From: Patescibacteria group bacterium
GTDB lineage: Bacteria; Patescibacteriota; Patescibacteriia; JACRDY01
DNA: 64,000 nucleotides
Assembly (NCBI GenBank): GCA_041650515.1
Contig: JBAZLA010000001.1
Location: forward strand, 18,710-82,709
Reading direction: 5' to 3'
In this document: positions 307 to 53,424 of the stretch, one piece after another
Position numbering within the stretch: the stretch's first letter is position 1
Layout: every line of letters starts with the position of its first letter
The notes under the pieces: generated by a model
The model's database searches: none
The model's input: only the letters and a program-made list of their open reading frames with translations
Told to the model about the DNA's origin: nothing
Made by a program: the position numbers and the translations under genes

Positions 307-711
307 TTATTTACTAATAATTTTAGTCCGAACTGGCAGCTTGTGCCCAGCTAAGGTCAAAGCTTCGGTAGCAATATCCGCCGCCACACCATCTAATTCT
401 AGGATGATCGTTCCTGGCTTAACCACGGCAACATAATGATCAACTGCGCCCTTACCGCCGCCCATCGGCACCTCAGCGCTCTTAGTGGTTATTGGCTTAT
501 CTGGAAAAACCCGAATCCATAGCTTACCACCACGTTTGATAAAATTGCTAACCACCCGACGAGACGCCTCTAACTGGCGCGCCGTCACCCATTTGGTATC
601 AAGCGCCTTTAATCCGAAGGAACCAAAATTCAACGCGATTTTAGAAGTCGCATTGCCCTTGGTCCGGCCCTTTTGCCATTTGCGGTGTTTAACTTTTTTT
701 GGCATTAACAT
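307..711 (-). CDS. rplP: 50S ribosomal protein L16
   Basis: Translation MLMPKKVKHRKWQKGR...GGGKGAVDHYVAVVKPG carries L16 signature motifs. Confidence 0.95.
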   Translation of the reverse strand: MLMPKKVKHRKWQKGRTKGNATSKIALNFGSFGLKALDTKWVTARQLEASRRVVSNFIKRGGKLWIRVFPDKPITTKSAEVPMGGGKGAVDHYVAVVKPGTIILELDGVAADIATEALTLAGHKLPVRTKIISK

Positions 712-749
712 ATTAAATCAAATATCCAAATAACAAATTTAATTAAGGA

Positions 750-1457
750 CTAATTCGCCTTTGGTAAAAAAGGTTTATTACTTTTTTTAAAATTCTCTGG
801 CTTTTCAACTGGCATTTGTTCTTTTAAGACTTCACCTTTATAAATCCAAACCTTTACACCAATAGCACCATAGATCGTCCGGGCAGCTCCTCGAGAATAA
901 TCAATCTCAGCTCGTAAAGTACTAAGTGGCAATTTGCCAGTGGTAAAAGTTTCCTCGCGGGCAATCTCAGCACCATTAAGTCGACCAGCAACAATCACTT
1001 TAACCCCTTGAGCACCAGCTCGCTCCACCCGACTAATTGACGATTTAACAGCCCGACGGAAAGGAATACGTTTTTCTAGGTCGGTAATAATGTCTTGCTG
1101 AACAATCCGGGCTGATAAAGAAGGCTTCGCCACTTCTTTAATATTCAAATTGATAATCATTTTCTGACTACCCAAAAATTGCTTCTTAACCTTTTTCTTC
1201 AGCTCTTCCACGCCCTGACCACCCCGACCGATAATAATACCCGGCTTGCCAGTAGCAATATTAATGTTTAGAGAACCACCCGTCCGTTCGATTACGATCC
1301 GATCCAAAGAAGCATTGCGTAATTCTTTTTCCAAAAATTTGCGAATCTTAATATCCTGCTCCAAGATTGCAGCGTAATTTTTGTCAGCAAACCAGCGTGA
1401 ATTCCAGTTATAATTCTGGCCGAGACGAAAAACTTTTGGATTAACCTTTTTACCCAT
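750..1457 (-). CDS. rpsC: 30S ribosomal protein S3
   Basis: Translation MGKKVNPKVFRLGQNYNWNSRWFA with KH and S3-C domains; conserved position in the operon. Confidence 0.95.
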   Translation of the reverse strand: MGKKVNPKVFRLGQNYNWNSRWFADKNYAAILEQDIKIRKFLEKELRNASLDRIVIERTGGSLNINIATGKPGIIIGRGGQGVEELKKKVKKQFLGSQKMIINLNIKEVAKPSLSARIVQQDIITDLEKRIPFRRAVKSSISRVERAGAQGVKVIVAGRLNGAEIAREETFTTGKLPLSTLRAEIDYSRGAARTIYGAIGVKVWIYKGEVLKEQMPVEKPENFKKSNKPFLPKAN

Positions 1458-1471
1458 AAAATATTAATTAA

Positions 1472-2074
1472 TTACATCCCTGACTTACGACTAAATAAAT
1501 TTTTGATCCGATTGCCGGCGGCTTTCTTAACCGCTCTTTTTTCCAAACTCTGTGGCTCGGCGCGTTTGCCCACTCGACGTTCATCAGACACTTCCGGCTT
1601 GACCTCTCGGCTATCATCATGAATCTCGGACTCAGTTTTCTCATATACTGCTTCACCTTTGGGCTTTTGATTAACTATTTCTAACTTCTTATCAGCCTTA
1701 TCTTGTTTGCCTTTTTCTTTAACTTCATGTTTTTTGGATGGCACCTTCTCGGCCAAAATAATCGACAGGTGGGTAGTTCTCTTTTTGATCGGAGTCGCTC
1801 GACCAAAAGCGCGTGGCCGCCAGCGTTTTAAACTCGGCCCTTGATCGGCGGTGATTTTGGCAATATACAAATTACTCTTTTCTAGTTTAAAATTATGTTC
1901 GGCGTTAGCTAAGGCTGATTTTAATAGTTTTCTAACTGGCCCAGCCGCGGCTTTATTAGTAAAAACTAACTGCGATAAAGCAATATTAACATCTAGCCCC
2001 CGAATCTTATCAATAACCAATCGGGTTTTCTGGGGCGACATTCTTAAATATCTAGCTTTAGCTTTGACTTCCAT
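1472..2074 (-). CDS. rplV: 50S ribosomal protein L22 with a roughly 90-aa Lys/Glu-rich C-terminal extension
   Basis: N-terminal 110 aa (MEVKAKARYLRMSPQKTRLVIDKIRG...) is canonical L22. The tail is low-complexity and charged. Confidence 0.9.
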   Translation of the reverse strand: MEVKAKARYLRMSPQKTRLVIDKIRGLDVNIALSQLVFTNKAAAGPVRKLLKSALANAEHNFKLEKSNLYIAKITADQGPSLKRWRPRAFGRATPIKKRTTHLSIILAEKVPSKKHEVKEKGKQDKADKKLEIVNQKPKGEAVYEKTESEIHDDSREVKPEVSDERRVGKRAEPQSLEKRAVKKAAGNRIKNLFSRKSGM

Positions 2075-2079
2075 AAAAT

Positions 2080-2409
2080 TTATTTACTAGCGGTAGCTGA
2101 AGCAACTTTTTTAACCTCTTGCTCCTTATCAGCCACTGCTTTAGCCTGTTCTTTAGCCATGCGACCACCATGGACTACAAACCTACGGGTTGAGGCAAAC
2201 TCACCTAAGCGGTGACCAACCATATTTTCAACTACTTTAATCTCAACATGGGTTTTGCCATTATGAACACCAAAAACATGACCAATCATCTCCGGTGTAA
2301 TGACCGCTGCCCGCGCCCAGGTTTTGATAACTGTGCCGGGTTTAATCCTGGCCACTTTCTTTAACAAGCGCTCGTCAACGTAAGGGCCTTTTTTTAGTGA
2401 TCTAGCCAT
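2080..2409 (-). CDS. rpsS: 30S ribosomal protein S19
   Basis: Translation [19 protein letters not shown]...[11 protein letters not shown] is canonical S19. Confidence 0.95.
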
Positions 2410-2416
2410 ATTTCAA

Positions 2417-3250
2417 TTATTTTTTACGTCGTTTAAGAATTAATCTGGTCGACCGGCGATTAACTTTACGGGTAGTATGACCCAAGGCTGGTTTGCCCCA
2501 AGGTGTCTTGGGATGTTTCAAACCAATTGGTGAGAGACCCTCACCACCACCATGAGGATGATCGACTGGGTTCATCGCTTTACCACGAACACTCGGTCTA
2601 ATTCCCATCAAACGTTTACGGCCAGCTTTACCAAGCCGCACGTGCCGATGATCAGGATTACTTAAAGTACCAACTGTGGCTAAACACTCTTTAGTGACTA
2701 AACGAACTTCACTTGAAGGTAATTTTAATTGAGCATAAGCACCTTCAACACCCATTAATTGAGCGTAGCTACCAGCCGAGCGAGCTAAACCGCCGCCCTG
2801 ACCAGGATTTAACTCAATATTATGAACCATCAGACCAACTGGAATAAATTCTAAAGGCATACAGTAACCAATCTCTGGTTTAATCGCTTTTTTTGAAGAA
2901 ATAACTAAATCACCGATCTTCAAGCCCTGGGGCACTAGAATATATCTTTTTTCACCATCTTTGTAAAATATCGCGCCAATTCGAGTCGAACGGTTAGGGT
3001 CATATTCAATAGTAGATAATCGGCCTTCAATATCAAATTTATCACGTTTAAAATCAATCTCCCGATAATAGCGCCGAGTGCCGCCACCTTGGTGACGAAC
3101 GGTAATTTTACCGGTATTATTACGACCAGCATTCTTGCGGTTAATTTTGGTTCTCGGTCTCAAGCTCCGCTTAACCGTAACATCACTAAAAGTATCAACC
3201 GATGTCTGACGGCGTGCTGGAGAGGTTGGTTTGTAAATTCTTAAGGCCAT
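2417..3250 (-). CDS. rplB: 50S ribosomal protein L2
   Basis: Translation MALRIYKPTSPARRQ...GGGEG. The supplied ORF extends further 5' (to 3331), but the conserved L2 N-terminus begins at the ATG at 3248-3250. Confidence 0.95.
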   Translation of the reverse strand: MALRIYKPTSPARRQTSVDTFSDVTVKRSLRPRTKINRKNAGRNNTGKITVRHQGGGTRRYYREIDFKRDKFDIEGRLSTIEYDPNRSTRIGAIFYKDGEKRYILVPQGLKIGDLVISSKKAIKPEIGYCMPLEFIPVGLMVHNIELNPGQGGGLARSAGSYAQLMGVEGAYAQLKLPSSEVRLVTKECLATVGTLSNPDHRHVRLGKAGRKRLMGIRPSVRGKAMNPVDHPHGGGEGLSPIGLKHPKTPWGKPALGHTTRKVNRRSTRLILKRRKK

Positions 3251-3267
3251 AATTCTAAATACTGTAT

Positions 3268-3699
3268 TTAAACTCCTTCGTAAACTTGAATTGTTTCCCC
3301 GGCTTTTAAGGTAATAACTGCCTTTTTCCAATCTTTGGTTTTACCAGTGGTTCGACCATAACGAACAGATTTACCCAGCAGTCTTATAATATTAACTTTA
3401 ACCGGTTTGACGCCATATAGAGCCACTATGGCTTTACTGATCTCCACTTTATTAGCCTGTGGTGCAACTTCAAAAACGTATTTACCTAGAGCGCCTAGGT
3501 TACTCACTTTCTCGGTCATGATTGGTCTGAGTAAATAACGATAAGCCTCTTTTGTATCTTCTTTAGAATGTTTAATCTCTTTCTTCTCGACCGGCGCAAC
3601 TGGTTTTTTAATTTCTGGTTTTTCCGTCACAACCTTAGCCGATTGGGCCTCGGTTTTGACTTTTTCGTCTTGCTTTTTAAACTTATTAAAAATTCCCAT
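3268..3699 (-). CDS. rplW: 50S ribosomal protein L23 with a Lys-rich N-terminal extension
   Basis: Core YRYLLRPIMTEKVSNL...VKPVKVNI is L23. The ATG lies 3 nt after the rplD stop. Confidence 0.85.
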   Translation of the reverse strand: MGIFNKFKKQDEKVKTEAQSAKVVTEKPEIKKPVAPVEKKEIKHSKEDTKEAYRYLLRPIMTEKVSNLGALGKYVFEVAPQANKVEISKAIVALYGVKPVKVNIIRLLGKSVRYGRTTGKTKDWKKAVITLKAGETIQVYEGV

Positions 3700-3701
3700 A
3701 T

Positions 3702-4448
3702 TTATTTTGCTTTCGTACGGACAAGTCGAGACTTGCCCCTACTTTCGACTTTCTTACTCGATTGTTTCTTTACTTTCACCATCGCTGGTTTAGCTGCTGG
3801 CTTGGCCTCTAATTTCAAACCTTGGCCGTATATTTTTTCAATCTCCTGCAAGGCCGCTTTAGAAATCAATAAAAACTTATATTTTAACAAATCAACAACA
3901 TTCAAACTATTTGCGCCCAAAGCATAAACTTTTTCTAGATTGTGAACCACCTGAACCAGCTTGGGATCAGTCGAAGCTAGCGCCAAACAAGTTTTTTGAT
4001 TTTTGACCGGTAATTTATTCAAAATTTGGTTTAGTAATTTAGTCTTCATCTCGGCTAGTTCCCACTTATCAACGACCACTAAATTATCGCTCTTGGCTTT
4101 ATCAGATAAAATCATTCGCAAAGCCTTATTCTTCATTTTTTGATTAATCTTAACCTTAAAATTACGTTCTTTGGTCGGACCAAAAGTAATACCGCCGCCC
4201 TTCCAGATTGGTGATCGACTAGAGCCATGACGCGCTCGGCCAGTGCCTTTCTGCTTCCAAGGTTTTTTACCGCCACCGCGAACGTCGCTCCGACCCTTAG
4301 TATGGGCCAAAACTTTTCGGGCGTTTTTTTCTTGAGCGATAACCACTTGGTGAATTACGGCGATATTTGGCTCAATATCAAATAAAACTGGATTTAATTC
4401 AATCTCTTCAACTTTATCACCGGCTAGATTGTAGACTGCTGTTTTCAT
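3702..4448 (-). CDS. rplD: 50S ribosomal protein L4 with a C-terminal Lys-rich tail
   Basis: Translation carries HTKGRSDVRGGGKKPWKQKGTGRAR, an L4 signature. Confidence 0.9.
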   Translation of the reverse strand: MKTAVYNLAGDKVEEIELNPVLFDIEPNIAVIHQVVIAQEKNARKVLAHTKGRSDVRGGGKKPWKQKGTGRARHGSSRSPIWKGGGITFGPTKERNFKVKINQKMKNKALRMILSDKAKSDNLVVVDKWELAEMKTKLLNQILNKLPVKNQKTCLALASTDPKLVQVVHNLEKVYALGANSLNVVDLLKYKFLLISKAALQEIEKIYGQGLKLEAKPAAKPAMVKVKKQSSKKVESRGKSRLVRTKAK

Positions 4449-4462
4449 AAAAATAAAAAAAC

Positions 4463-5098
4463 TTACTTTTTACCAGCTGCTGGTTTAGTCACTCGAATCT
4501 CTAATAAACCGTTCCGAGCGCCTGGTAGTGCTCCCTGGATATAAAGTAAATTCTTAGTCTGATCAATATCAATAATCTTTAAATTTTTGATTGTTACCCG
4601 CTCATCACCCATATGGCCGGCCATTCTTTTGCCTTTAAAAACCCGCTGGGGGCCAGTATCGCCGATTGAGCCAGGCATCCGGTTTTGGTCCTTATGACCA
4701 TGAGTTTTGTTCTGACAATGGAAGTGGTGACGCTTAACTACACCCTGGAAACCTTTACCCTTTGAAGTGCCAACCACCTGAACTACGTCGCCTTGGCTAA
4801 AATTAGCCACTGTTACCTTATCGCCGCGCTTAATTTCGGCTAATTTACTATCATTTTCCGCTCTAAATTCGCATAAATAAGCCAAATTCCCCAAATCTTT
4901 TGTATGACCAGCTTCTGACTTGGTCGGGTGTTTTTTAACTCCAAAACCAAGCTGAACGGCTTCATAAGTATCTTTCTCTTTGGTCCGAACTTGGGTAACC
5001 ACACATGGCCCAGCCAAAACCGCGGTCACCGGAGTAACGGTGCCGTCAGGGCTAAACTTCTGGGTCATGTTCACTTTTTTACCCAAAATCGCTTGCAT
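4463..5098 (-). CDS. rplC: 50S ribosomal protein L3
   Basis: Translation MQAILGKKVNMTQKF...FKGKRMAGHMG. The supplied ORF starts 11 codons earlier (5131); the conserved start is at 5098. Confidence 0.9.
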   Translation of the reverse strand: MQAILGKKVNMTQKFSPDGTVTPVTAVLAGPCVVTQVRTKEKDTYEAVQLGFGVKKHPTKSEAGHTKDLGNLAYLCEFRAENDSKLAEIKRGDKVTVANFSQGDVVQVVGTSKGKGFQGVVKRHHFHCQNKTHGHKDQNRMPGSIGDTGPQRVFKGKRMAGHMGDERVTIKNLKIIDIDQTKNLLYIQGALPGARNGLLEIRVTKPAAGKK

Positions 5099-5640
5099 AA
5101 GGCAAAGAAAAAAGCTAGTAACCTCTATCAATAATTAATTACCAATAAGGGTTACTAGCCTTAGCTTTTAAGGATATTTTTGGCTAAATTTAGCTAAATA
5201 TTTTCCTTTCTTGCCTCTAAAGACTAGCGTAGATTATCGCCTCGTAAGACTAACGTCACGGGGGAATTTGCTCCACTAATCCTCACTGGTAGCCACAGTA
5301 TAAAGCAAGATTAAAATGCTGTCAAGGAATAGTCCACAGTCCACAGTCCAAAACGGCTTTAATAAAGAAAAAACCGCCCCAAAGCGGATTTGTTATTGGC
5401 TCTGCCGACAGCCATCAGCTAACAGCCATCAGCTTATCAAAAACTCCACCATCGGCAGGCTGAAGATGATCTGGCTAAAAGCTAAGTGGGTGTCCGCAGT
5501 ACAGGCGCCACGGCGCTAGACAATGTGAGACTCCCATTACCAGATGATGACCCAGAACATAATCAACCCAAATGTCCGATAGTGAAGCTCGTCTTTATTA
5601 TACTCCTGCTGGTAAAAGGACGTCAACTTTGTTTAGTACA

Positions 5641-6222
5641 CAGTGCACAGTACCTAGTACACAGTTTAGCTAGATTTAATTATTTTTTTAGAACGATCTC
5701 ATCGTCGGGATATTAAGATACGATTGCTAATTAATAAACTAAAAACTATGACCACAAAAAGCTATCGTGACCTAATCGTTTGGCAAAAAAGTCTAAATTT
5801 GGTTTTAGCCACCTATGAATTGACTAAATGTTTCCCCAAAGAAGAACTTTTCGGGCTAACCACCCAAATCCGTCGGGCGGCTATTTCTATTCCTTCAAAC
5901 ATTGCCGAAGGCTACGGCCGCCGGTCTAACGGTGATTTTCGACGATTTCTCTTAATTGCCAAAGGATCCGCCCTAGAATTAGAGACTCAACTGCTAATAG
6001 CCAAGGAGTTAAAACTAACAGAAGACAACAAATTCACCAAAGCTGAATCATTACTAATTGAGGTGGCAAAATTACTTTACTGTTTTGTAAAAAAAATAAA
6101 ATAGGGATAAATACACAGTAACTAACTTCCCGAGTCAATTACAACCCCAGAGTTCCCTAGATAGACTTGGGAAGTTTAGTTTTTTCTAAAGTACTAGGTA
6201 CTGGGTACTAGGTACTAGTCAA
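5641..6222. mobile_element. Inverted-repeat cassette carrying four-helix-bundle gene 1; arms are GTACTAG/GTGCACA-type heptamer arrays
   Basis: Left arm cagtgcacagtacctagtacacag is the reverse complement of the right-arm type gtactaggtactgggtactaggtactag. Confidence 0.6.
5748..6104 (+). CDS. Four-helix-bundle protein of the 23S rRNA intervening-sequence family (TIGR02436-like, Avd-like fold)
   Basis: Translation MTTKSYRDLIVWQKS...IPSNIAEGYGRRS...ALELETQLLIAKEL is a hallmark of the family. ATG at 5748; the ORF finder begins at a TTG at 5724. Confidence 0.8.
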   Translation: MTTKSYRDLIVWQKSLNLVLATYELTKCFPKEELFGLTTQIRRAAISIPSNIAEGYGRRSNGDFRRFLLIAKGSALELETQLLIAKELKLTEDNKFTKAESLLIEVAKLLYCFVKKIK

Positions 6223-6291
6223 TAAAAAAAGGCGGGTGTTTAGTCCGCCAGGAAACGAAACGAATCGCCTCTCAGAAAATAATACTGCGGT

Positions 6292-6606
6292 TTAGGTCCA
6301 AAGCCGCTGGACCTGCCGCTTCAATGCACAGAGCCTCACATCCGGCTGACTACGCCGGAGGTGGTGAATGACACCAATCACGGTGCAAATCGCCGCTTGC
6401 CCGCGACCCGATTGAACCAAAGTCATAAAGGTCCGATGATCAACTTGCTGACCATTAACTTCGACTGGTTCTATTAACCTGCCCTCGATCAGAGCCACTG
6501 TGCCCGGATCGATCTCGATGGCTGGAAGACGACGGTGGCGCTGTTCCCCCGATCCTCTTAAAAGTTGAGAAATCGTGGTGCCACCTTGGGTGCCTGCGTC
6601 GGTCAT
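6292..6606 (-). CDS. Hypothetical 104-aa protein in a GC-rich segment, with a perfect SD (AAGGAGGGG) 6 nt before the ATG; immediately downstream of tRNA-Thr
   Basis: The only protein-like frame in this GC-rich stretch. It has a strong RBS, unlike native genes, and no recognisable family. Confidence 0.45.
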   Translation of the reverse strand: MTDAGTQGGTTISQLLRGSGEQRHRRLPAIEIDPGTVALIEGRLIEPVEVNGQQVDHRTFMTLVQSGRGQAAICTVIGVIHHLRRSQPDVRLCALKRQVQRLWT

Positions 6607-6686
6607 GTGCCCCTCCTTGTGTGCGGCTCATCAAGCCACACGTTTGTTGAACCATTTACTCCCTTGGGGGAGCTACCTACGATCAT

Positions 6687-6758
6687 AGACCCTGACAGGA
6701 TTCGAACCTGTGCGCAACCAGTACCAGTGGCTTGCTCTACCAACTGAGCTACAGGGTC
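6687..6758 (-). tRNA. tRNA-Thr, anticodon GGU
   Basis: Reverse complement folds as a cloverleaf. Acceptor GACCCUG/CAGGGUC, D-arm GCUC-AGUUGGUA-GAGC, anticodon arm AGCCA-CUGGUAC-UGGUU, T-arm ACAGG-UUCGAAU-CCUGU. 72 nt; no encoded CCA. Confidence 0.85.
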
Positions 6759-6762
6759 GTGA

Positions 6763-6869
6763 TAGTACATAGTACGTAGTACTTAGTACTTAGTACATGG
6801 AGTTTGAGACCAACCATTGTTGGGATATGACTCACTATGTACTGTGTACTAAGCACTACGTACTATTTA
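6763..6869. repeat. Long imperfect hairpin whose arms are tandem TAGTAC(N) heptamers (about 35-nt arms, about 33-nt loop), abutting the 5' side of tRNA-Thr
   Basis: Arm 1 is atagtacatagtacgtagtacttagtacttagtacat; the reverse complement of arm 2 is aaatagtacgtagtgcttagtacacagtacatagt. Confidence 0.8.
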
Positions 6870-6871
6870 TC

Positions 6872-6899
6872 AAAAAAACCGCCCTTTCTTTGGCGGCTT
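6872..6899 (-). terminator. Rho-independent terminator downstream of ndk
   Basis: On the minus strand: GCCGCC-AAAGAAAG-GGCGGU followed by UUUUUUU. Confidence 0.6.
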
Positions 6900-7128
6900 A
6901 GCTGTTGATTCTTGGAAACTTTTCCAAAATCTATCCTTGCTGTTTGCTAACCGCCATGCTGGTCTTCTTGTCAACCAAAACCAAAAAGTCCCAGCGAATA
7001 TCAGGGGTCTTAATGATCTGATTGTTCAAGATGGCAGTTAACATATTATTAATTCTATTGTAACAAACTCAAAATATCTGTCAATACAATTTTTACTATG
7101 TCGATTCGATCCCAACTATTCAACGGAC

Positions 7129-7719
7129 CTAGAACATGATGTCCTCTTCCGCTCGCTGATAATCATGAATCTCATTTTTGGGAAACCAATAATCTACTTC
7201 GTGCTCGGCTTCAGTCGGATCGCCAGAAGCGTGGACAATATTGCGGATCGCTCGTTTATCTGAATTGGCCAAAGTCGGCGAATCAACCGAATAGTCGCCA
7301 CGGATTGTTCCCATGTCGGCTTTACTCGGCAGAGTATGACCAGCGATTTTACGTACCATATCAATCGCGTGCAGGCCAGAAATAAGCACCGCCACCATTG
7401 GACCCGAGGTTAGATATTCTACATTCCAATCATAAACCTTGTTGCCAATCTTAAGCGGATCATCAGTGCCAATTTCTTTAATCGGATCTTTGCCATATTT
7501 AGCATAATTCTCCAGCGTTTTATTGCCCATGCCAATTAACCACGCTTCGGTGCCCGGATAATGTTTGCGGGCTTTTTCTTTACTGGCGACTAACATCTTA
7601 AGCGCAATAATTTTTAGACCCCGCTGCTCGATCCGGTGTAAAATATCACCGATCAAACCGCGCTTAACGCCGTCGGGCTTAACCAATAAAACTGTTTTTT
7701 CTTCGCGTGGACTAATCAT
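7129..7719 (-). CDS. ndk: Nucleoside diphosphate kinase with an internal insertion
   Basis: Translation LLVKPDGVKRGLIGDILHRIEQRGLKI...NIVHASG is an NDK signature. Confidence 0.9.
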   Translation of the reverse strand: MISPREEKTVLLVKPDGVKRGLIGDILHRIEQRGLKIIALKMLVASKEKARKHYPGTEAWLIGMGNKTLENYAKYGKDPIKEIGTDDPLKIGNKVYDWNVEYLTSGPMVAVLISGLHAIDMVRKIAGHTLPSKADMGTIRGDYSVDSPTLANSDKRAIRNIVHASGDPTEAEHEVDYWFPKNEIHDYQRAEEDIMF

Positions 7720-7794
7720 ATTTTTGCCAAAAATTAATTTTAAGTTGGCTCTATTATAGCAAAACTAGCCAAAGAGTCAAAATTAAAACCCAAT

Positions 7795-8060
7795 CCCATA
7801 ATTAATACGGTCGGGGGCTGGGGCGGATGCGGCGCGGAGCCGAAGTCTCCGTCTGGTCGATACTGTCCAGGAGACAAGGCGGGTAGACCGGACTGAGGAT
7901 GAACAATGAATCGCGCCTCAAGAGCCCCAGGACTTTTTTGCTACTTTTTTAGTCATAAAAAAGTAGATCATTACGGAGACGAGACAGGGATTCCTCCGCT
8001 TCACCCCGCCTGCGGCGGGGTCCGGTCGGAATGACAATTAAACAACCGATAACCCGCCGG
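7795..8060. repeat. GC-rich structured intergenic repeat, copy A of five
   Basis: Shares gggggctggggcg, aacaatgaatcgcgcct, a ctacttttttagtcataaaaaagtag hairpin, and a ggtcggaatgacaatt end with the copies at 10320, 38515, 42100 and 58888. Confidence 0.7.
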
Positions 8061-8103
8061 ATAGTTTAGATTCTTTTAATCCTCTCCATTTTACACTTAA
8101 ACC

Positions 8104-9414
8104 ATGCGACCAAAACACCTCCGTCTCATTTTAATCATGATCCTAATCATCGTCGCTAGTCTGCGCTACCTTTTTTGGTATCCCAAAATTACTCCCGATC
8201 AACTAGCTTACTATAACGATCAAGGTTCGACCACTTTTATCGGCTTGATAACCAGCGAACCTGAAAAAAATCTCAAAAACACCAAGCTAGTTGTCTCGGG
8301 GCAGGATTTAAAAGGTAAAGTTTTGATCACCACTTATCTCTGGCCAGAATATCATTATGGCGACCAATTAGAAATTAATTGCCGGCTTCAAGCGCCCCAA
8401 CCAATCGAGGATTTTGCTTATGACAAATATCTAGCTAAATCGCAAATTTATTCTCTTTGCTACCAGCCCCAAATCAAACTCCTAGCCCAAAATCAGGGCA
8501 ATCGGTTTTATAGTCAAATTTTAAAAGTGAAAAACCGCCTGGGCCAAACTATTGACCAGAGTTTGCCTAGTCCACAGTCAGCCCTGCTAAAAGCCCTACT
8601 CCTGGGCGACCGTGGCGATCTACCCCCAGAACTTACAGCGGCTTTTAGTCGAGTTAGTTTAACTCATATCATTGCCGTCTCTGGTTCGCACTTGGTAATA
8701 ATTATTGCCGTGTTAATGAATCTACTCTTGGGTCTAGGCCTACGCCGTAAAGTCGCCTTTTATTTTATTGTCTCAATTCTGATTACTTATACTTTGCTAG
8801 TCGGCGCGCCAGCTTCGGCGGTCCGCGCCACGATTATGGGTATTATGACGCTCTTGGCCCAACAAATCGGCCGGCTCAATCGTTCCAGCTGGTCGCTAAT
8901 CCTGACTGCTCTAGTGATGTTAGCCATCAACCCACTGCTGCTATTCTACGACGTTGGCTTCCAACTTTCTTTTCTCTCAGTCTGGGGCCTAATGAGTATC
9001 TCGCCTTTATTAGAAAAGTGGCTAATCAAAGTATCAATCCCCAACTGGTTAGGGTTAAAAGACTCTTTAATTATGACGCTGGCGGCCCAAATCGCCACTT
9101 TGCCATTAATTATTTACCAGTTTGGCCAAGCTTCCCTGGTCGCGCCACTAGCTAACCTATTAATTTTGCCAGCCGTGGAGCTAATTATGATCTTGGGGTT
9201 TGCCGCCACTTTTATCGGTCTAATTAATCTAACACTGGGACAAATCTTATTCTATTTAGAGTGGCCGCTACTACAATATTTTATTAAAACAACAGCCTGG
9301 CTAGCCAGCTGGCACTATTCAGCGCTAACCGGGATAAAAATCGGCTGGTGGTTTTTGATAGCTAGTTATAGAATCATCCTAATTATAAAACACGTAACCC
9401 AACATAAGACATAG
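8104..9414 (+). CDS. comEC: ComEC/Rec2 competence protein, N-terminal membrane channel part (DUF4131 plus Competence domain)
   Basis: Polytopic membrane protein; pairs with the downstream MBL-domain ORF. Confidence 0.8.
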   Translation: MRPKHLRLILIMILIIVASLRYLFWYPKITPDQLAYYNDQGSTTFIGLITSEPEKNLKNTKLVVSGQDLKGKVLITTYLWPEYHYGDQLEINCRLQAPQPIEDFAYDKYLAKSQIYSLCYQPQIKLLAQNQGNRFYSQILKVKNRLGQTIDQSLPSPQSALLKALLLGDRGDLPPELTAAFSRVSLTHIIAVSGSHLVIIIAVLMNLLLGLGLRRKVAFYFIVSILITYTLLVGAPASAVRATIMGIMTLLAQQIGRLNRSSWSLILTALVMLAINPLLLFYDVGFQLSFLSVWGLMSISPLLEKWLIKVSIPNWLGLKDSLIMTLAAQIATLPLIIYQFGQASLVAPLANLLILPAVELIMILGFAATFIGLINLTLGQILFYLEWPLLQYFIKTTAWLASWHYSALTGIKIGWWFLIASYRIILIIKHVTQHKT

Positions 9415-9449
9415 TTAATGACCCCATCCTGTTATATACTTCATATTAC

Positions 9450-10319
9450 GTGTTTTACAAAAACATGAACACCAAAAAAATTATTGCTTATCTATCTATT
9501 CTTCTCGCTCTGCTTGTCACTCTAACAGGCGGATTCTACTATTACCAAGCTAGCCAAATTCTTCGCGTCACCTTCTGTGATGTTGGCCAGGGCGACGCTA
9601 TTTTGATCCAAACGCCCCAACGACAGAATATTCTAATCGACGGCGGACCAGACAACTCGGTCCTCAATTGTTTAGGTAAAAACTTACCATTCTACGATCG
9701 CCAGCTAAGCTTGGTCATTCTTACTCACCCCCACGCCGATCACACCACTGGTTTAATCGAGGTTCTAAATCGCTACCAAGTTAAGCAAGTTTTACTAACT
9801 AAGACGAAATATTCTGATCCTATTTACAACCAACTGTTAAGTTTAATCCAACAAAAAAATATTCCGACCGTTGATCCCGCAAATCAGCCCAATTTTAATC
9901 TCAGCCAAAATATCAACCTGGCGACTCTTTATCCTTTAACCTCTTTAGTAGACCAAACCGTTGATAATATTAATAATACTTCCATCGTTAATAAGCTTAC
10001 TTATCAAAACATTTCCTTTCTATTTATGGGCGATCTAGAGGTGGCGGCCGAAAATGTCTTAATTCTTAATCAACCCAATCTAAAATCTGACGTTCTAAAA
10101 GTCGGCCACCACGGTAGCACCTCTTCCTCGGCGCCAGAATTTTTAAATTTAGTTAAACCCAGAATCGCTATTATCTCGGTCGGGGTAAAAAATACTTACA
10201 GCCTACCCAGTCTACGAACAATTAGGCGGCTAGAGAAACTTGGCAGTCAAGTTATCCAAACCAGCCTAAGTGGTGAGATAACAATCCAAAGTGACGGCCA
10301 AAAATTTTGGCTAAAATAA
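9450..10319 (+). CDS. ComEC C-terminal metallo-beta-lactamase domain protein (split comEC)
   Basis: Carries LTHPHADHTTGL and VGHHGS motifs, with an N-terminal TM anchor. Confidence 0.85.
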   Translation: MFYKNMNTKKIIAYLSILLALLVTLTGGFYYYQASQILRVTFCDVGQGDAILIQTPQRQNILIDGGPDNSVLNCLGKNLPFYDRQLSLVILTHPHADHTTGLIEVLNRYQVKQVLLTKTKYSDPIYNQLLSLIQQKNIPTVDPANQPNFNLSQNINLATLYPLTSLVDQTVDNINNTSIVNKLTYQNISFLFMGDLEVAAENVLILNQPNLKSDVLKVGHHGSTSSSAPEFLNLVKPRIAIISVGVKNTYSLPSLRTIRRLEKLGSQVIQTSLSGEITIQSDGQKFWLK

Positions 10320-10655
10320 AAGCAACCCGAGGAAGACGGCTTTGTCTTATTAGTTATATCGGCCGAATATCATCTTAATCCGTGAGGGTTTGGGGCTGGC
10401 ATGGAGCAAAGTCGAACTTCGACCTCTTCTGATTACACCGAAGAGCGAGGCGGGTTAGTCCGTAGACAGCTAAACAATGAATCGCGCCTTATGAACCCCA
10501 AAGGTTTTTTGGTCCGCCTAGACTTGCTAGGCGAGGCTGGTTACTTTTTTGACTCCAAAAAAGTGACATTTACCTTAATAAATATAGTTACAAAGGATGA
10601 TAATAATTAAAACAATATAAATAAACAAATCGCCCTACAAATACAAAACATTTTA
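10320..10655. repeat. GC-rich structured repeat, copy B, flanked by a 27-bp direct duplication (10307-10333 and 10656-10682) of the comEC 3' end
   Basis: ttggctaaaataaaagcaRcccgagga appears on both sides (26 of 27 identical). The interior shares the aacaatgaatcgcgcct and ttacttttttgactccaaaaaagtgac modules with copy A. Confidence 0.75.
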
Positions 10656-10715
10656 TTGGCTAAAATAAAAGCAGCCCGAGGATACCGGACTGCTTAAATT
10701 TTTCTAATAACTCAA

Positions 10716-27388: not shown

Positions 27389-27483
27389 GTAGTATGCAGT
27401 ATGCGGTATACAGTATGCAAGGGTTGAGTGCCACAGTTAGTGAAAAATAAGCCCTGCATACTGCATACTGACCCCTGCATACT
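27389..27483. repeat. Hairpin element with AGTATGC heptamer arms, between ahcY and pfkB
   Basis: gtatgcagtatgcggtatacagtatgcaagggtt ... aagccctgcatactgcatactgacccctgcatac. Confidence 0.8.
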
Positions 27484-27488
27484 AATTT

Positions 27489-28430: not shown

Positions 28431-28480
28431 GATGTCCGCTGTTCGCTAATGGCTCGCGAAATGCGAACCGCGAACCGCGG
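28431..28480. repeat. Short hairpin with GCGAACCGCGGACAGC-type arms (CGAACCG heptamer family)
   Basis: tgtccgctgttcgc...gcgaaccgcgaaccgcggacagc. Confidence 0.7.
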
Positions 28481-28484
28481 ACAG

Positions 28485-29186
28485 CTATTTAATTAACCCC
28501 TGCTTTCTCAAATATATTTCCGCCCGTTTTAAGTCATCCGGATAGCCGATGGGCAACCAATAATCAGTTTGGACGATTTTAACTGGATAACCATTAACCA
28601 TTTTAACGACTGTTTGTGGCAAGCCAAATTCTTTACCATCCTTAATCGGCGCTAAACTGTATTTAAAAACATTCTCATCCAAAACATAAAGGGCAGAATT
28701 AACTAGGCACTTAGTCCCAGGCATAAGTTCGGTTTCAACAATATCAATCAAATTACCAGCCTCATTAATCATCAAGGCGCCATAATTACGCAATTCTTCC
28801 GCCACAACTTCTTTAGCTAAGATACAGCGCTCTTGCGCTAAACATCGAACGACATCTTTGGCTTGATAAATATCATCCCCCATCAAAACTAAAAAGCGGC
28901 CCTTCAGTAATCCCCGACAACGCCATAGAGCATCGCCGGTACCTAATAATTCTGGCTGAATAACATAACTAATCTGGCGACCATCATATTCATTACCAAA
29001 ATATTTTTTGAGCTGCTCACCCAAATAACCCACCACCAAAATTACTTCATCAATTTCTTTAGGTAATTGCTCAATACTGTAGGCTAACAATGGCTTGCCT
29101 TGCACCGGCAGCATTGGTTTGGGTACTTCGTAAGTTAGGGGCCGCATTCGTACACCGGCACCAGCGGCTAGAATCACTGCTTGCAT
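28485..29186 (-). CDS. Sugar-phosphate nucleotidyltransferase (NTP_transferase family)
   Basis: MQAVILAAGAGVRMRPLT...KPML motif. Confidence 0.85.
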   Translation of the reverse strand: MQAVILAAGAGVRMRPLTYEVPKPMLPVQGKPLLAYSIEQLPKEIDEVILVVGYLGEQLKKYFGNEYDGRQISYVIQPELLGTGDALWRCRGLLKGRFLVLMGDDIYQAKDVVRCLAQERCILAKEVVAEELRNYGALMINEAGNLIDIVETELMPGTKCLVNSALYVLDENVFKYSLAPIKDGKEFGLPQTVVKMVNGYPVKIVQTDYWLPIGYPDDLKRAEIYLRKQGLIK

Positions 29187-34308: not shown

Positions 34309-35634
34309 CTAATAGCCTCTAATTTTCATTGCTACCGCCACCCGCTTGATGCCCAAAATAAAAGCAGCGGTGCGCAGATCAATTTTCTTTTCTTTGGCGA
34401 TTGATTCAACACTAATAAAAGCTTTATCCATGACTACTTTTAGCCGTTTAGCCACTTCTTCTTCACTCCAATTTTCCCGATGCAGGTTTTGCAACCACTC
34501 AAAATAAGAAACCGTCACCCCGCCCGCATTAACCAAAACATCGGGGACAACAATTATCCCCCGCTTGTTTAATTTAACATCCGCTTCGGGCGTGGTTGGG
34601 CCATTGGCAATTTCCAAAATTACTTTAGCTTTGATCTTGCCGGCGTTTTGGGCCGTAATCTGATTTTCCAACGCCGCCGGGATCAAAATATCACACGGCA
34701 TTTCTAAAAGCTTGGCGCTAGCCATATGTTTATGTTCCACTTCATCACAAACCGAACCAGTGCAGTAATAACCATCAACCAAGCCTTTTTGTTTTTTAAT
34801 CTTCATTGTGCTTTCTGGGTGGAAAGAATCACCATTGGGTGAGTAGATACCGCCTTTAGAATCAGCTAAGCCAACTACACGGTAGCCAGCTCGATTAACC
34901 AGCTGAGCAATATGATAACCGGCATTACCAAAACCTTGGATAATCACTCGCAAACCACCTTTTGACTTTCGTACGGGCAAGTCGCGACTTGCCCCTGCTT
35001 TCATTTTCTTAACCACGTTTTCTAAAACATAGAACGCACCCTGAGCTGTCGCCGTATCGCGACCAAGCGACCCGCCGATTTCTACCGGTTTGCCGGTCAC
35101 AACGGCTGGTACTGGATAACCTTTAATTTTGGAGAACTCATCCATGATCCAAGCCATAATCTGCGGATTAGTATAAACATCGGGCGCCGGCACATCTTTA
35201 AGCGGGCCAATATATTCCTGAATCGCCTGAACATAGCCTCGAGTCATCCGTTCCAGCTCGCCAACGGACATTTTTTTGGGATCAACTTTGATCCCGCCTT
35301 TACCGCCGCCAAAGGGGATATCCACCACGGCGCATTTGACCATCATCCAAAAAGCCAAGGCCTTAACCTCATTAATATCCGATTGCGGATAATAACGGAT
35401 GCCACCCTTAAACGGACCACGAGCATCATTATACTGCACCCGATAGCCTTCAAAATTCTTGATCTGGCCATTATCCATCTTAACTGGCACAGTAAAATGT
35501 AACGCTCGCTTGGGTGAACGAAGTTTATCCAAAATCTCCGGATCAAGATCAAGATATTTGGCAGCCAAGTCTAGTTGTTTTAAAGCGTTGGTAAATGGGT
35601 TGGCAGTTCGCGGTTCGCGGTTCGCGGTTCGCAT
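34309..35634 (-). CDS. gdhA: Glutamate dehydrogenase
   Basis: Lys-Gly active-site region KGGIRY...GGGKGG. The first 12 codons, starting at the ATG at 35632-35634, lie within the (GCGAACC)n repeat and encode RTANREPRTANP. Confidence 0.9.
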   Translation of the reverse strand: MRTANREPRTANPFTNALKQLDLAAKYLDLDPEILDKLRSPKRALHFTVPVKMDNGQIKNFEGYRVQYNDARGPFKGGIRYYPQSDINEVKALAFWMMVKCAVVDIPFGGGKGGIKVDPKKMSVGELERMTRGYVQAIQEYIGPLKDVPAPDVYTNPQIMAWIMDEFSKIKGYPVPAVVTGKPVEIGGSLGRDTATAQGAFYVLENVVKKMKAGASRDLPVRKSKGGLRVIIQGFGNAGYHIAQLVNRAGYRVVGLADSKGGIYSPNGDSFHPESTMKIKKQKGLVDGYYCTGSVCDEVEHKHMASAKLLEMPCDILIPAALENQITAQNAGKIKAKVILEIANGPTTPEADVKLNKRGIIVVPDVLVNAGGVTVSYFEWLQNLHRENWSEEEVAKRLKVVMDKAFISVESIAKEKKIDLRTAAFILGIKRVAVAMKIRGY

Positions 35635-36120
35635 ATACAAAGTTTAGAAAATTTTAATATTGAATATTTTATACTAGTTTTATTAACTAATTAGCAAATA
35701 CAACTTTATGATGATTAAATCATACAAAGACCTACTCGTCTGGCAGGTAGGAATTGAGCTAGTAATAGCTACCTATGAGCTAACAGAGCAATTCCCGAAA
35801 AAAGAACAATTTGGACTAACCTCGCAGATTAGAAGAGCCTCAATCTCTATCCCATCTAATGTCGCCGAGGGTTATCAACGTAAAACTGATGGGGAACTTT
35901 TACGTTTCTTATTGATTGCTCTCGGTTCGGCCTCTGAACTAGAAACTCAACTTTTTTTAGCCAAAAAATTGAAAATGACATCCGAGGAATACTTTCTAAG
36001 AATAGATAATTTGTTAACACGAGTACTCCAGCTTACCAACTCTTTTATCAATAAACTACGCAAGGATACCGGGCGAACAGCGAACCGCGGCCAGCGAACC
36101 GCGGCCAGCGAACCGCAACA
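35595..36120. mobile_element. Inverted-repeat cassette carrying four-helix-bundle gene 2; left arm (GCGGTTC)x3-4, right arm (CAGCGAACCGCGGC)x3
   Basis: The flanks are reverse-complementary heptamer arrays. The cargo gene is antisense to both neighbours. Confidence 0.65.
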
Positions 36121-36133
36121 AACTAACCGCTGA
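35708..36133 (+). CDS. Four-helix-bundle protein of the 23S rRNA IVS family, copy 2
   Basis: MMIKSYKDLLVWQVG...IPSNVAEGYQRKT...ASELETQLFLAKKL is paralogous to the 5748..6104 product. The C-terminal 20 aa are encoded by the flanking repeat. Confidence 0.8.
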   Translation: MMIKSYKDLLVWQVGIELVIATYELTEQFPKKEQFGLTSQIRRASISIPSNVAEGYQRKTDGELLRFLLIALGSASELETQLFLAKKLKMTSEEYFLRIDNLLTRVLQLTNSFINKLRKDTGRTANRGQRTAASEPQQTNR

Positions 36134-41246: not shown

Positions 41247-41945
41247 ATGAGAACGAATATGTTTATACTTATCAATAAACCCGCCGGTTGGACATCGCAT
41301 GACGTGATTGGCCGGCTGCGCCGGATTACTGGCGAAAAACGCATTGGCCACGCCGGCACGCTTGACCCCTTTGCCACCGGTCTTTTGATTGTGGCCATTA
41401 GTCGCGAATCAACCAAACAAATCGATCAATTTGTAAAACTAAACAAAGAATATCTAGCCACAATTAAACTCGGCGCGACTACTGATACTTATGATAAAAC
41501 TGGAAAGATACAGAAAAGCAAAGAAGCAATAAAACAAGAAAACAAAAATATTAAAAAGGCTTTAGAATCGTTCATTGGCCCCCAGTTGCAGATCCCGCCA
41601 ATGTTTAGCGCCAAAAAAGTAAACGGCAAAAAACTCTACGAATTGGCCCGACGAGGCAAGGAAATTGAGAGAAAACCGAGCCAGATTAATATTACTGATT
41701 TAGAAATTATTGACTATCACTGGCCGGATTTGAAAATTAAAGTTAACTGCTCCTCTGGCACCTATATCCGCAGCTTGGCCCATGATCTGGGAATTAAGCT
41801 GGGTTGCGGCGGGTATTTAGAAGAATTAACTCGAACTAAAATTGGTAATTTTGATTTAAAAAATGCAATTACTCTAGATAAATTAACACCGGAAAACTGG
41901 CAAACGCTAGTTCATAGTACAGAGTACACAGTACCCAGTATCTAA
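41247..41945 (+). CDS. truB: tRNA pseudouridine(55) synthase
   Basis: HAGTLDP catalytic Asp motif. The last roughly 10 codons overlap an AGTACAN heptamer array. Confidence 0.9.
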
Positions 41946-42026
41946 ATTCCCTCTTTTTTATTATAATACCCCATTCCTTAAGAAAACTGGGGGTATTAGT
42001 ATCTATGTATTATGTACTCTGTATGG
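41913..42026. repeat. Heptamer-arm hairpin (AGTACAG/AGTACAC units) spanning the truB 3' end
   Basis: catagtacagagtacacagtacccagtatc ... gtattagtatctatgtattatgtactctgtatgg. Confidence 0.6.
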
Positions 42027-51968: not shown

Positions 51969-52050
51969 AATATAGTAAATTTAAGAATTAAGATTCAAGA
52001 TCAAAGAAAAATTAACATCCTTAGATCGTAAATTTTGAATCCTAAATTTA

Positions 52051-53424
52051 CTATTTAACCAACCTCTTTACTAACTCAACTGATAAACCAATATATGTCT
52101 CCGGGGTTAGCTCTAATAACTTTTCTTTCTCTTTTTTATCAATCTCTAAACCCTTAATGAACTGGCACATTATTTCTTTTGTCACTTTCTCGCCCCGCGT
52201 TAGTTCTTTCAACTTTTCATACGGTTTCTGATAGCCAAGCTTACGCAGAGTGGTTTGGACGGCTTCAGCTAGAACTTCCCAATGGTTATCTAGCTCAACC
52301 CGAATACTCTTGGTATCAACCTCTAATTTTTCTAAACCAGTCAAAGTATTTTGATAAGCAACTAAACTATAAGCTAAAGCCACACCCTGATTACGTGAAA
52401 CAGTACTGTCGGTTAAATCGCGCTGCAACCGGCTAACCGGCAGTTTATCCGCCATAAACCGCAGTAGGCTATTGGCTAACCCCAGATTACCTTCGCTGTT
52501 TTCAAAATTAATCGGATTGACCTTGTGGGGCATAGTTGAAGAGCCAACTTCGCCGGCTTTCTTGTGTAGCTTAAAAACACCACGGCTAATATAGAGCCAC
52601 ATATCTTGATCCAAGTCTTTGACTATATTATTAGTCCGAGCAATGGCATCATACATCATCGCACTAACATCGTGTGATTCAATCTGGGTGGTAAGTAAAT
52701 TGGGGTTAAAACCCAGCAACTTAATAAAACGCTCAGAAAATTTGAGCCAATCAACCTGCGGGTAAACTAAATTAGCCGCCGCGTAATTACCCACGGCGCC
52801 ATTAAGTTTACCTTCTAATTTAATTGCTCGCAGCTGGTCTAGACTGCGCGACAAACGAGAATAAAATACGGCCATTTCTTTACCCAGAGTCGTTGGTGTC
52901 GCGGGCTGGCCATGGGTTAGGGCTAATAACGCCACACCACGGTTGGCCTGAGCTAATCTTTTGATTACTTTTAAAATATCCTCAATAGCTGGAATAATCT
53001 CTTTTTCTACTCCGTTCCGGAGCATCAAAGTATAAGCTAAATTATTAACATCTTCGCTAGTTAGGCCAAAATGAACAAACTCTAAATTCTTGGTTATTTT
53101 TAGCGCGGTCAATTTTTCTTTAATAAAATATTCCACTGCCTTAACATCATGATTAGTGGTTTTCTCAATCTCCTTGATTCGTTCCGCGTCGGCTAGACAA
53201 AACTTAATATACAAGTTGACTATTTTTTTAGTCTCCTGACTATTATACCTTTTAACTTCTTTGATCTGTGGTTCCCGACCCAAGGCTAATAAATATTCAA
53301 CTTCAACCAACACTCGATATTTCATTAAAGCACCTTCACAAAAATAACCAGCTAATTTACCGATTTGATTAGCATAGCGGCCATCAAGGGGAGAAATTGT
53401 CTGAAGCGAATTTAAGGTCGACAT
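52051..53424 (-). CDS. purB: Adenylosuccinate lyase
   Basis: Lyase_1 fold with the SSTMPHKVNP signature. Confidence 0.95.
   Translation of the reverse strand: MSTLNSLQTISPLDGRYANQIGKLAGYFCEGALMKYRVLVEVEYLLALGREPQIKEVKRYNSQETKKIVNLYIKFCLADAERIKEIEKTTNHDVKAVEYFIKEKLTALKITKNLEFVHFGLTSEDVNNLAYTLMLRNGVEKEIIPAIEDILKVIKRLAQANRGVALLALTHGQPATPTTLGKEMAVFYSRLSRSLDQLRAIKLEGKLNGAVGNYAAANLVYPQVDWLKFSERFIKLLGFNPNLLTTQIESHDVSAMMYDAIARTNNIVKDLDQDMWLYISRGVFKLHKKAGEVGSSTMPHKVNPINFENSEGNLGLANSLLRFMADKLPVSRLQRDLTDSTVSRNQGVALAYSLVAYQNTLTGLEKLEVDTKSIRVELDNHWEVLAEAVQTTLRKLGYQKPYEKLKELTRGEKVTKEIMCQFIKGLEIDKKEKEKLLELTPETYIGLSVELVKRLVK

Follow-up and report, generated by a model that had tools for sequence, protein, structure and literature searches.

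A stretch of 64,000 nt from a Patescibacteria genome (contig JBAZLA010000001.1 of assembly GCA_041650515.1; the window from here on) carries, between rplC and a tRNA-Thr gene, a small cassette where a gene of the four-helix-bundle (4HB) family PF05635/TIGR02436 is enclosed by two arms of tandem heptamers that are reverse-complementary to each other. A comparison of this element (cassette 1) with its relatives reveals that packaging between inverted arrays is the normal form of the whole 4HB protein family: inverted arrays of 7-8-nt units are found at ~80% of 128 4HB loci from many phyla and from viral contigs. An earlier note on this DNA had presented the locus as an oddity, a view that has to be replaced by that of a standard packaging shared by the family. 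As a family-wide architecture the foldback cassette appears to be previously undescribed, and cassette 1 itself appears to be an unusual variant of it, antisense to its neighbours and self-promoted. The best explanation for the whole, to which we assign a probability of about 0.55, is that cassette 1 represents a free-standing copy of the gene cassette known from the intervening sequences (IVS) of 23S rRNA that bear an open reading frame (ORF), with a stem that would insulate or excise the insert.

The rRNA intervening sequences that bear an ORF have been a puzzle since about 1990, as have the heptamer repeats of bacteria, and to our knowledge the function of the 4HB or 'S23p' family is not known. 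The present finding ties together these intervening sequences, a large protein family of unknown function and the bacterial heptamer repeats in a unifying picture, where the 4HB gene normally travels as a foldback cassette in transcribed spacers, either of operons or of rRNA. There are also consequences for annotation, as operons can be interrupted by 4HB inserts whose arrays could pass for regulator sites or for CRISPR-like repeats. In a search of openly available full texts, no published description of arms plus 4HB gene as a general architecture was found beyond the IVS of Coxiella.

Arms, fold and protein of cassette 1

The left array of cassette 1 reads TAGTACAC AGTGCAC AGTACCT AGTACAC AGT and the right one AGTACTAG GTACTGG GTACTAG GTACTAG TC (Table 1), and both were called as period-7 arrays by Tandem Repeats Finder (5635-5665 and 6191-6218). 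An alignment of one arm with the reverse complement of the other has 23 identities in 27 positions and scores 34 (Smith-Waterman), in comparison with 95th and 99th percentiles of 26.4 and 30.8 for the flanks of 117 control genes. The RNA duplex between them reaches -38.8 kcal/mol (z -8.8; shuffled arms give -11.8 +/- 3.0), and that of the opposite strand -34.6 kcal/mol. In folds of the region 5620-6240 it is the arms that close the structure as a stem, in the minimum-free-energy as well as in the centroid prediction. Cassette 1 has, in other words, terminal inverted repeats of IVS type that close a stem-loop, and the observation of the earlier note, a 4HB gene bracketed by complementary heptamer arms, is borne out, the flanks being able to pair. 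Part of the complementarity is due to the palindromic AGTACT core of a genomic array family to which the arms belong.

The protein encoded in cassette 1 matches PF05635 with an E-value of 1.3e-39 (135.1 bits; cutoff 33.8), TIGR02436 with 3.1e-38 (130.4 bits; cutoff 24) and NF008911 with 148.7 bits (cutoff 137), and 4HB families are its sole matches in Pfam and NCBIfam. All the family-invariant columns of an alignment of 38 homologues are kept, including W12, Q13, P30, Q40, R43, S50, N51, E54, G55 and R58 among others. The solved homologue XCC0516 of Xanthomonas (PDB 2GSC) matches the protein at 3.1e-24, and both solved homologues crystallise with five chains. The family is very abundant, with 7,980 of 8,000 scored candidates passing E <= 1e-5; an 81%-identical homologue (P0002) could not be located on any contig. 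No HUH (Y1) transposase was recognised in the 4HB protein with Pfam or NCBIfam. A role in anti-phage defence was considered and rejected, as neither of the two 4HB proteins of the window matches a PADLOC model.

A published parallel is the 23S IVS of Coxiella burnetii, which contains the same ORF within a 28-bp stem of terminal inverted repeats that is cut by RNase III in vitro (PMC4990558). Directly before that ORF stand two or three tandem heptamers (GACAGAT), their number depending on the strain, and the 5' site of RNase III is the start of the first heptamer (PMC4990558). Moreover, rRNA insertions of the candidate phyla radiation (CPR) sometimes encode a 4HB protein (PMC11270868). The family, the terminal inverted repeats and the heptamers preceding the ORF all support the IVS-like architecture originally proposed for cassette 1. 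Its position outside rRNA is equally clear, since Rfam at gathering threshold finds no rRNA in the 64-kb window, the tRNA-Thr being the sole match, and the cassette is not inserted in any 23S rRNA helix (9, 25 or 45). The number of heptamers does not vary between two assemblies of the source organism, which are identical.

Inverted arrays in the whole 4HB family

To define how common this packaging is, 80 loci of 4HB relatives were surveyed, one genome per species, from Bacteroidota, Acidobacteriota, Patescibacteria, Proteobacteria, Planctomycetota, Clostridia and other groups, by matching the 250 nt that precede each ORF against the reverse-complemented 250 nt that follow it; the 117 control genes came from the same loci and were scored alike. 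The median score was 32 for the flanks of 77 loci versus 19 for the controls, and 82% of those loci lay above the 95th percentile of the controls (Mann-Whitney p = 3e-25). The result was replicated in an independent sample of loci from viral contigs, with 39 out of 51 above the same threshold. The arms lie very close to the gene: by the medians, 19 nt separate the end of the 5' arm from the ATG, and 8 nt separate the stop codon from the start of the 3' arm. They are also specific for each other: an arm matches its own partner with a median of 31 versus 15 for the arms of other loci, and at 64 of 79 loci the true partner beats all 12 random ones.

The arms are markedly periodic: at lags 7 and 14 their autocorrelation is 0.49 and 0.45, respectively, versus a background of ~0.25. 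The best period is 7 in 40-44 of 63 arms and 8 in another 16-17. Among dinucleotides AG is the most frequent in the 5' arms (16.5%), which are richer in purines than their 3' partners at 49 loci, the reverse being true at 4; this asymmetry is absent in the window, where 5' and 3' arms have purine fractions of 0.52 and 0.58 in cassette 1 and of 0.46 and 0.59 in cassette 2, the second copy described below. The commonest trinucleotide of the 5' arms is TAG. The idea that TAG heptamers serve to place stop codons in each of the three frames was dropped as a general explanation, because many arms, including those of cassette 2, are stop-free. At one orthologous Flavobacterium locus, where the 4HB gene lies between PRiA4_ORF3 and NA37, the unit is of the AAGGTTCA type or of the GAGTAGCT type depending on the species.

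Periodic hairpins without a gene are also found in the flanks of the surveyed loci, with 22 matches, several of them overlapping, in 466 kb. Examples from other phyla lie at 8167-8292 of locus L003, 4603-4721 of L038, 2871-2985 of L040 and 1102-1305 of L073, and such neighbouring hairpins often carry the same unit as the arms of the cassette. A nearby hairpin with the cassette's own unit occurs at L011, L038, L040 and L073.

Operon spacers and the joint gain or loss of arms and gene

The cassettes show a clear preference for insertion in sense orientation within operons. Sixty-one out of 79 are co-directional with both neighbours, at median distances of ~70 nt and 46 nt that are largely taken up by the arms, and these short gaps leave no room for a promoter in the sense cassettes. 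The gene pairs that they split include sdhA/sdhB (9-10 loci in Bacteroidota), the two halves of transketolase (tkt), pheS/pheT, leuA/leuB, hisA/hisF, yicC/gmk, gmk/nadD and hydB/hydA. Across many Flavobacterium species the synteny of the cassettes is stable. One of the surveyed cassettes adjoins cas1.

A filled and an empty version of the same site were found among the relatives of the window's ndk neighbourhood. In the empty version, represented by three Kuenenbacteria contigs (L179-L181), the hydB-like gene overlaps the next, hydA-like hydrogenase gene by 10 nt, and no heptamers are present. In the filled version (L177 and L178) the upstream side reads TAA-agt-(AGTTATC AATTATC AGATATC AATTATC A)-ATG, followed by the 4HB gene, and the downstream side TAA-tg-(TTGATAAT TGATATC TGACAAC TGATAAT)-15 nt-ATG. 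The proteins flanking the two versions are 63-84% identical. In this case at least, the gene and its arms have been acquired or lost jointly, and the filled/empty pair, along with the many different operons that host a cassette, supports the suggestion of the earlier note that the element is possibly mobile.

Several cassettes occur in groups. Two are interleaved with pilin genes of a type IV secretion system (L174, 1557-3372), tandem duplicates are found in Flavobacterium (L064 and L074, ~3000-4400), and L177 holds two cassettes within 10 kb (1-120 and 9877-10317). On the plasmids alpha and gamma of Nostoc PCC 7120 the same 4HB protein, WP_010994075.1, is encoded twice (L168, NC_003276 1279-6620; L169, NC_003267 12591-17932). 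In the gamma copy the 4HB gene follows an ISL3 transposase gene, and an inverted stretch of the same locus follows the 3' arm. Both plasmid copies keep only the 3' arm, (CTCTGCC)n, the 5' arm being lost, and they were discarded as a guide to the ends of the element and read as ISL3 passengers.

An antisense variant in Patescibacteria

The orientation of the two cassettes of the window departs from this scheme. Together with those of L003, L006 and L170, they form a set of five closest homologues examined (58-68% identity) that are all antisense to both neighbours; the more distant Patescibacteria copies are sense. An alignment showed that the five antisense cassettes share an AT-rich leader of 80-100 nt between the 5' arm and the ATG. 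In it TTTAGA is invariant, a hexamer resembling TATAAT follows ~17-18 nt downstream, and there is also a TTAAnTAATAA box. The hexamer pair of cassette 1 scores below the threshold of a promoter scan, and it is because the leader is conserved in five cassettes that a promoter is predicted there. On the other side of the gene, a hairpin followed by a U-run, the probable terminator of the 4HB transcript, is situated inside the boundary of the 3' arm.

An element of the form X-gene-rc(X) keeps its arms when it is reverse-complemented or when its inner segment is inverted, so that sense and antisense versions look alike from outside. We infer that the antisense clade arose by such a flip and then needed to gain a promoter.

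A second cassette and other arrays in the window

The earlier note had recommended a search for additional cassettes, and cassette 1 is indeed not alone: a tblastn search found a second 4HB copy whose product is 58% identical to the first and matches PF05635 at 7e-35 (119.8 bits). Cassette 2 spans 35598-36116 overall, and the last ~23 codons of its 4HB gene read through the 3' arm. The arms of cassette 2 also close its fold, with a duplex of -57.6 kcal/mol, so that arms pair in both cassettes of the window despite their different heptamers. With a second copy in the window and armed relatives elsewhere, the prospect of a single-copy gene among heptamer-free relatives is set aside.

Heptamer arrays are not peculiar to the cassette 1 locus, since more than 20 exist in the window. 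The window also holds at least seven gene-less hairpins built from such arrays, most of which exactly fill the spacers of co-directional gene pairs (Table 1). The arrays fall into families that cross-pair genome-wide, AGTAC, AGTATGC and GCGAACC, cassette 1 belonging to the first and cassette 2 to the last.

Table 1. Cassettes, gene-less hairpins and related arrays, with positions counted from the first nucleotide of the window
Feature	Position	Strand	Basis or remark
Cassette 1, 5' arm, ~4.5 tandem heptamers (AGTACNN type)	5634..5666		sequence and Tandem Repeats Finder
Cassette 1, promoter-like leader: TTTAGA (5687-5692), 18-nt spacer, TATTAA (5711-5716)	5687..5716	+	conservation
Cassette 1, 4HB gene, 118 aa, PF05635/TIGR02436	5748..6104	+	profile match, all family-invariant residues
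Cassette 1, internal hairpin (17 bp) then U-run, probable terminator of the 4HB transcript	6120..6186	+	-21.8 kcal/mol, z only -1.9
Cassette 1, 3' arm, ~4 tandem heptamers (GTACTNG type)	6190..6222		sequence and Tandem Repeats Finder
Gene-less hairpin, AGTAC family, adjoins tRNA-Thr	6762..6869		fold z -9.6
Gene-less hairpin, AGTATGC family, fills spacer of two co-directional genes	27390..27484
Short gene-less hairpin, GCGAACC family (unit of cassette 2 arms)	28440..28485
Cassette 2, 5' arm, (GGTTCGC)n	35598..35632		Tandem Repeats Finder
Cassette 2, 4HB gene, antisense between gdhA and aminotransferase gene	35708..36133	+	tblastn, profile match
Cassette 2, 3' arm, (GCGAACC/GCGGCCA)n	36073..36116		Tandem Repeats Finder
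Gene-less hairpin, AGTATGC family, operon spacer	37332..37433
Gene-less hairpin	41908..42024
AGTAC-family arms (41908-41940 and 43728-43760, 29/33 complementary) around non-4HB cargo	41908..43760
Gene-less hairpin, AGTATGC family, operon spacer	50380..50471
Gene-less hairpin, AATTAAG type, operon spacer	51972..52054

A further pair of arms, located between truB and purH, encloses 1.8 kb of 58% GC without a 4HB gene, and represents foldback arms holding an apparently foreign, non-4HB cargo. The cargo carries two ORFs on the minus strand, neither with a Pfam match: 43121-43321 and 42235-43089, the latter with an N-terminus that resembles a signal peptide. It also holds a GC-rich hairpin at 43572-43690 whose arms are 52 nt long. 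Heptamer arrays also occur in frame inside long ORFs (31518-31562, 55778-55808, 55991-56022 and 59237-59266), namely leuS (array of GCGAACC type), purL and a ~200-aa C-terminal extension without Pfam match that is fused to purQ. Intragenic heptamer elements have also been reported in a Geobacter genome paper (PMC2700814).

As to the surroundings of cassette 1, the placement originally given, between rplC (end at ~5098-5131) and tRNA-Thr (6687-6758, minus strand), is right for the flanks but not for the contact with the tRNA gene, since a terminator on the minus strand (6225-6250) and a block rich in GC (6260-6680) stand between the two. The block, directly 3' of tRNA-Thr on the minus strand, has 55-60% GC in a genome of ~42% GC and ends in a terminator-like hairpin with a T-run (6250-6225); its minus-strand ORF 6292-6606 has no Pfam or PADLOC match. 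It could be foreign DNA integrated at tRNA-Thr, or a novel RNA. Among the Rfam matches with E <= 5 in 5100-7150 there is no known RNA family for the arms or for the block, only tRNA-Thr. The gene ndk lies on the same side.

On the rplC side, a strong sigma-70-like site (TTGACG, 18-nt spacer, TATAAT; 11 of 12 matches) is found on the minus strand at 5597-5626, immediately outside the 5' arm and reading toward rplC, away from the cassette, and a second one lies at 5325-5297. The rplC of the window (4463-5700 region) lacks the usual upstream tuf-rpsJ; the order tuf-rpsJ-rplC is present in the closest relative, L088 (4428-5001), the only one whose ORFs were read. None of 80 relatives, with L3 proteins at most 63% identical, has a 4HB gene within 5 kb of rplC. 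The 2 kb upstream of rplC form a lineage-specific patchwork of arrays, cassette, GC-rich block and tRNA-Thr, and in a region so rearranged no precise empty site can therefore be defined.

Function of the arms and alternative explanations

In the preferred explanation, the element consists of a PF05635/TIGR02436 gene inside foldback arms, each with 3-6 tandem units of 7-8 nt in inverted orientation. In most bacteria it is a promoterless cassette in sense orientation, within the few dozen bases that separate two operon genes, and is most likely transcribed within the host RNA. The arms would then zip into a stem of 25-45 bp, looping the gene out and rejoining the two host segments. In the rRNA copies such a stem is the RNase III site, and we infer that the same stem might insulate the cassette from operon transcripts, or excise it from them, through RNase III processing outside rRNA. 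The copies of the window belong to a small antisense sub-clade of Patescibacteria with an acquired promoter-like leader, where the arms of cassette 1 are taken to persist as an insulator or as the boundary of the insert. The gene-less copies of the arms in other operon spacers would make up a foldback repeat family with the 4HB gene as its usual coding cargo. Both excision by RNase III and mobility of the cassettes, by whatever mechanism the latter might proceed, are plausible.

A number of observations weigh against this explanation. In the first place, no test showed selection on the RNA helix as such. G·U mismatches do not outnumber A·C ones on the sense strand (36 vs 52, p = 0.11), and, when the arrays are delimited independently of the arm alignment, the variant units of one arm are not mirrored in the other (median mid-p 0.46 over 26 loci; Wilcoxon p = 0.57); a first permutation of unit order had been weakly positive and was discarded as biased by the delimitation of the arms, its unbiased version being null. 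With neither G·U excess nor mirroring, the arms are therefore complementary as inverted arrays of one unit, and they look like two such arrays and not like a helix maintained base by base. Moreover, a plain stem needs neither tandem units in an AG register nor the fixed purine polarity of the arms (49 vs 4 loci). Cutting by RNase III has been demonstrated only for rRNA copies, in other organisms (PMC4990558), and no rnc signature was found in the 64-kb window, which says little about the whole genome. The filled and empty genomes are only ~65% identical in their flanking proteins, with no target-site duplication discernible. Finally, because promoter-like leader and terminator both lie inside the arms, the 4HB transcript of cassette 1 probably carries neither of them, and pairing of the arms would be restricted to DNA or to RNA that reads through from the host. 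The term 'hairpin-excised' used in the earlier note is unproven, and for the mRNA of this antisense cassette it is doubtful.

Some of these points suit better a rather unlikely alternative, a protein-plus-repeat system similar to that of the REP-associated tyrosine transposases (RAYT) and REPINs, where the arms would act as foldback termini at the level of DNA or of single strands and a pentamer-forming 4HB protein would recognise the AG-N5 unit. The 4HB protein would then maintain or spread both gene-bearing and gene-less hairpins, the RNA stem being a by-product. The absence of an RNA-type mismatch bias and of mirroring fits this proposal, and tandem units that keep their register with a fixed polarity are more to be expected of an array bound by a protein than of a plain stem. 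In the same line, each cassette of the window shares its unit with a hairpin family (AGTAC and GCGAACC, respectively), gene-less hairpins near the cassettes of L011, L038, L040 and L073 repeat the unit of the cassette, and arms and gene are gained or lost jointly. The family has highly conserved polar residues, along with the five-chain crystals of both solved homologues. The XCC0516 gene of Xanthomonas campestris has its start codon overlapped by a GGGAATC array, 6 nt from bccP (PMC4692102, supplementary table), and the same genome holds 186 GGGAATC arrays and 70 inverted pairs (PMC4692102); the link between XCC0516 and the array is undiscussed in the searched text and tables of that paper (PMC4692102). 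Against such a system, neither catalysis nor binding of nucleic acids is known for the protein outside the Avd of diversity-generating retroelements (DGRs), no recombinase is linked to the cassette and no target-site duplication was seen. Cassette synteny is stable across many Flavobacterium species, and for certain hairpin families, such as AGTATGC in the window and the hairpin of L003, no 4HB copy is seen. Furthermore, proteins that are 58-85% identical go with quite different units, and therefore direct recognition would rest on little beyond the AG register.

In a broader form of this alternative, PF05635 proteins would be trans-acting ring partners that read the AG-N5 register and that maintain, regulate or spread selfish elements dwelling in spacers, among them the IVS, the short tandemly repeated repetitive (STRR) sequences, the GGGAATC arrays and the Geobacter sites, a proposal that we also consider unlikely. 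A precedent for a protein that reads short spaced repeats is TRAP, which recognises (G/U)AG repeats. If true, 4HB proteins and heptamer repeats would constitute a system as general as that of RAYTs and REPINs and mechanistically unrelated to it.

It is still less probable that the association is incidental, the heptamer hairpins being generic spacers of the lineage (REP-like stabilisers or terminators) and the 4HB gene having landed in, or homing to, their loop. Within the window there is something to be said for it: gene-less hairpins outnumber cassettes (at least 7 vs 2), one arm pair (41908-43760) holds unrelated GC-rich cargo, and the arms cross-pair with other arrays besides their own partner. 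In Geobacter, IS110-family elements insert into the paired arrays of operon spacers at fixed distances (PMC2700814). The survey argues in the opposite direction, since ~80% of the 128 loci across phyla have arms that hug the ORF, gene-less periodic hairpins are rare near the same loci, one empty site is hairpin-free and the copies in rRNA are armed too.

The weakest candidate, a remnant or satellite of a DGR where the 4HB protein would be an Avd with its reverse transcriptase elsewhere and the heptamer arrays would be template or target, draws on the fold family shared with Avd, on weak matches to PF22296 and NF033474 and on the frequent presence of DGRs in CPR genomes, and is highly improbable given Avd scores of 17.9 bits for NF033474 (cutoff 80) and 21.8 for PF22296 (cutoff 40), and given that most 4HB family members sit in housekeeping operons with no reverse transcriptase nearby. 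A crude motif search of the 64 kb for reverse transcriptase-like ORFs gave only RNase HII and a methyltransferase. No direct repeat resembling a template/variable repeat (TR/VR) pair occurs within 14 kb of cassette 1, and the sole direct repeat of at least 40 nt in 1-20000 corresponds to paralogous gene ends at ~18.5 and 19.8 kb. The DGR reading was rejected on these grounds as far as the window allows, in accordance with the earlier note, which had seen neither reverse transcriptase nor TR/VR pair in the window and had called for the profile comparison, where the protein scores above the cutoff of TIGR02436 and below those of the Avd models.

Comparison with known systems

The foldback cassette of the 4HB family shares features with several known systems. 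As in the 23S IVS of Leptospira and of Coxiella burnetii (S23p), a PF05635 protein is encoded by an ORF that terminal inverted repeats close into a stem-loop, and the Coxiella element adds tandem heptamers of varying copy number upstream of the ORF and transcription from the host unit (PMC4990558). Unlike these IVS, cassette 1 sits in a spacer of protein genes and not in rRNA; its clade is antisense with a promoter-like leader, and its probable terminator lies inside the arms.

With the Avd of DGRs, the product of cassette 1 has in common a small and basic four-helix bundle of the same superfamily. Avd is pentameric, and the solved 4HB relatives form five-chain crystals. The difference lies in profile scores under the Avd cutoffs and in a locus where neither reverse transcriptase nor TR/VR was found. 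The parallel with RAYTs and REPINs consists in a single small gene that has a short repeat at either side, in inverted orientation, and in the recurrence of this repeat between other genes of the genome as gene-less hairpins, an arrangement observed in the window as well as in Xanthomonas. On the other hand, the 4HB protein is not a HUH/Y1 transposase and has no known enzymatic motif, and the repeat of its cassettes is a tandem array of 7-8-mers instead of a single palindrome.

Eukaryotic FB foldback transposons and MITEs (miniature transposable elements with inverted repeats) have terminal inverted repeats built from tandem sub-repeats. The 4HB cassettes resemble them in arms of short tandem units in variable number, and in the existence of many copies without a coding centre and few with a gene. 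They differ from them in being bacterial, in having tiny arms (25-45 nt), and in showing no transposase and no target-site duplication.

Finally, cyanobacterial STRR sequences, the GGGAATC pairs of Xanthomonas and the Geobacter sites contain the same kind of repeat, likewise placed in operon spacers and as convergent pairs (PMC4692102, PMC2700814). In Geobacter metallireducens, paired arrays of heptamers or octamers in the spacers of nifD/nifK and of fliP/fliQ/fliR were described as putative regulator sites (PMC2700814). No connection with 4HB proteins is drawn in either publication (PMC4692102, PMC2700814), and what sets the 4HB cassette apart from these published arrays is that its pair of arrays encloses a gene.

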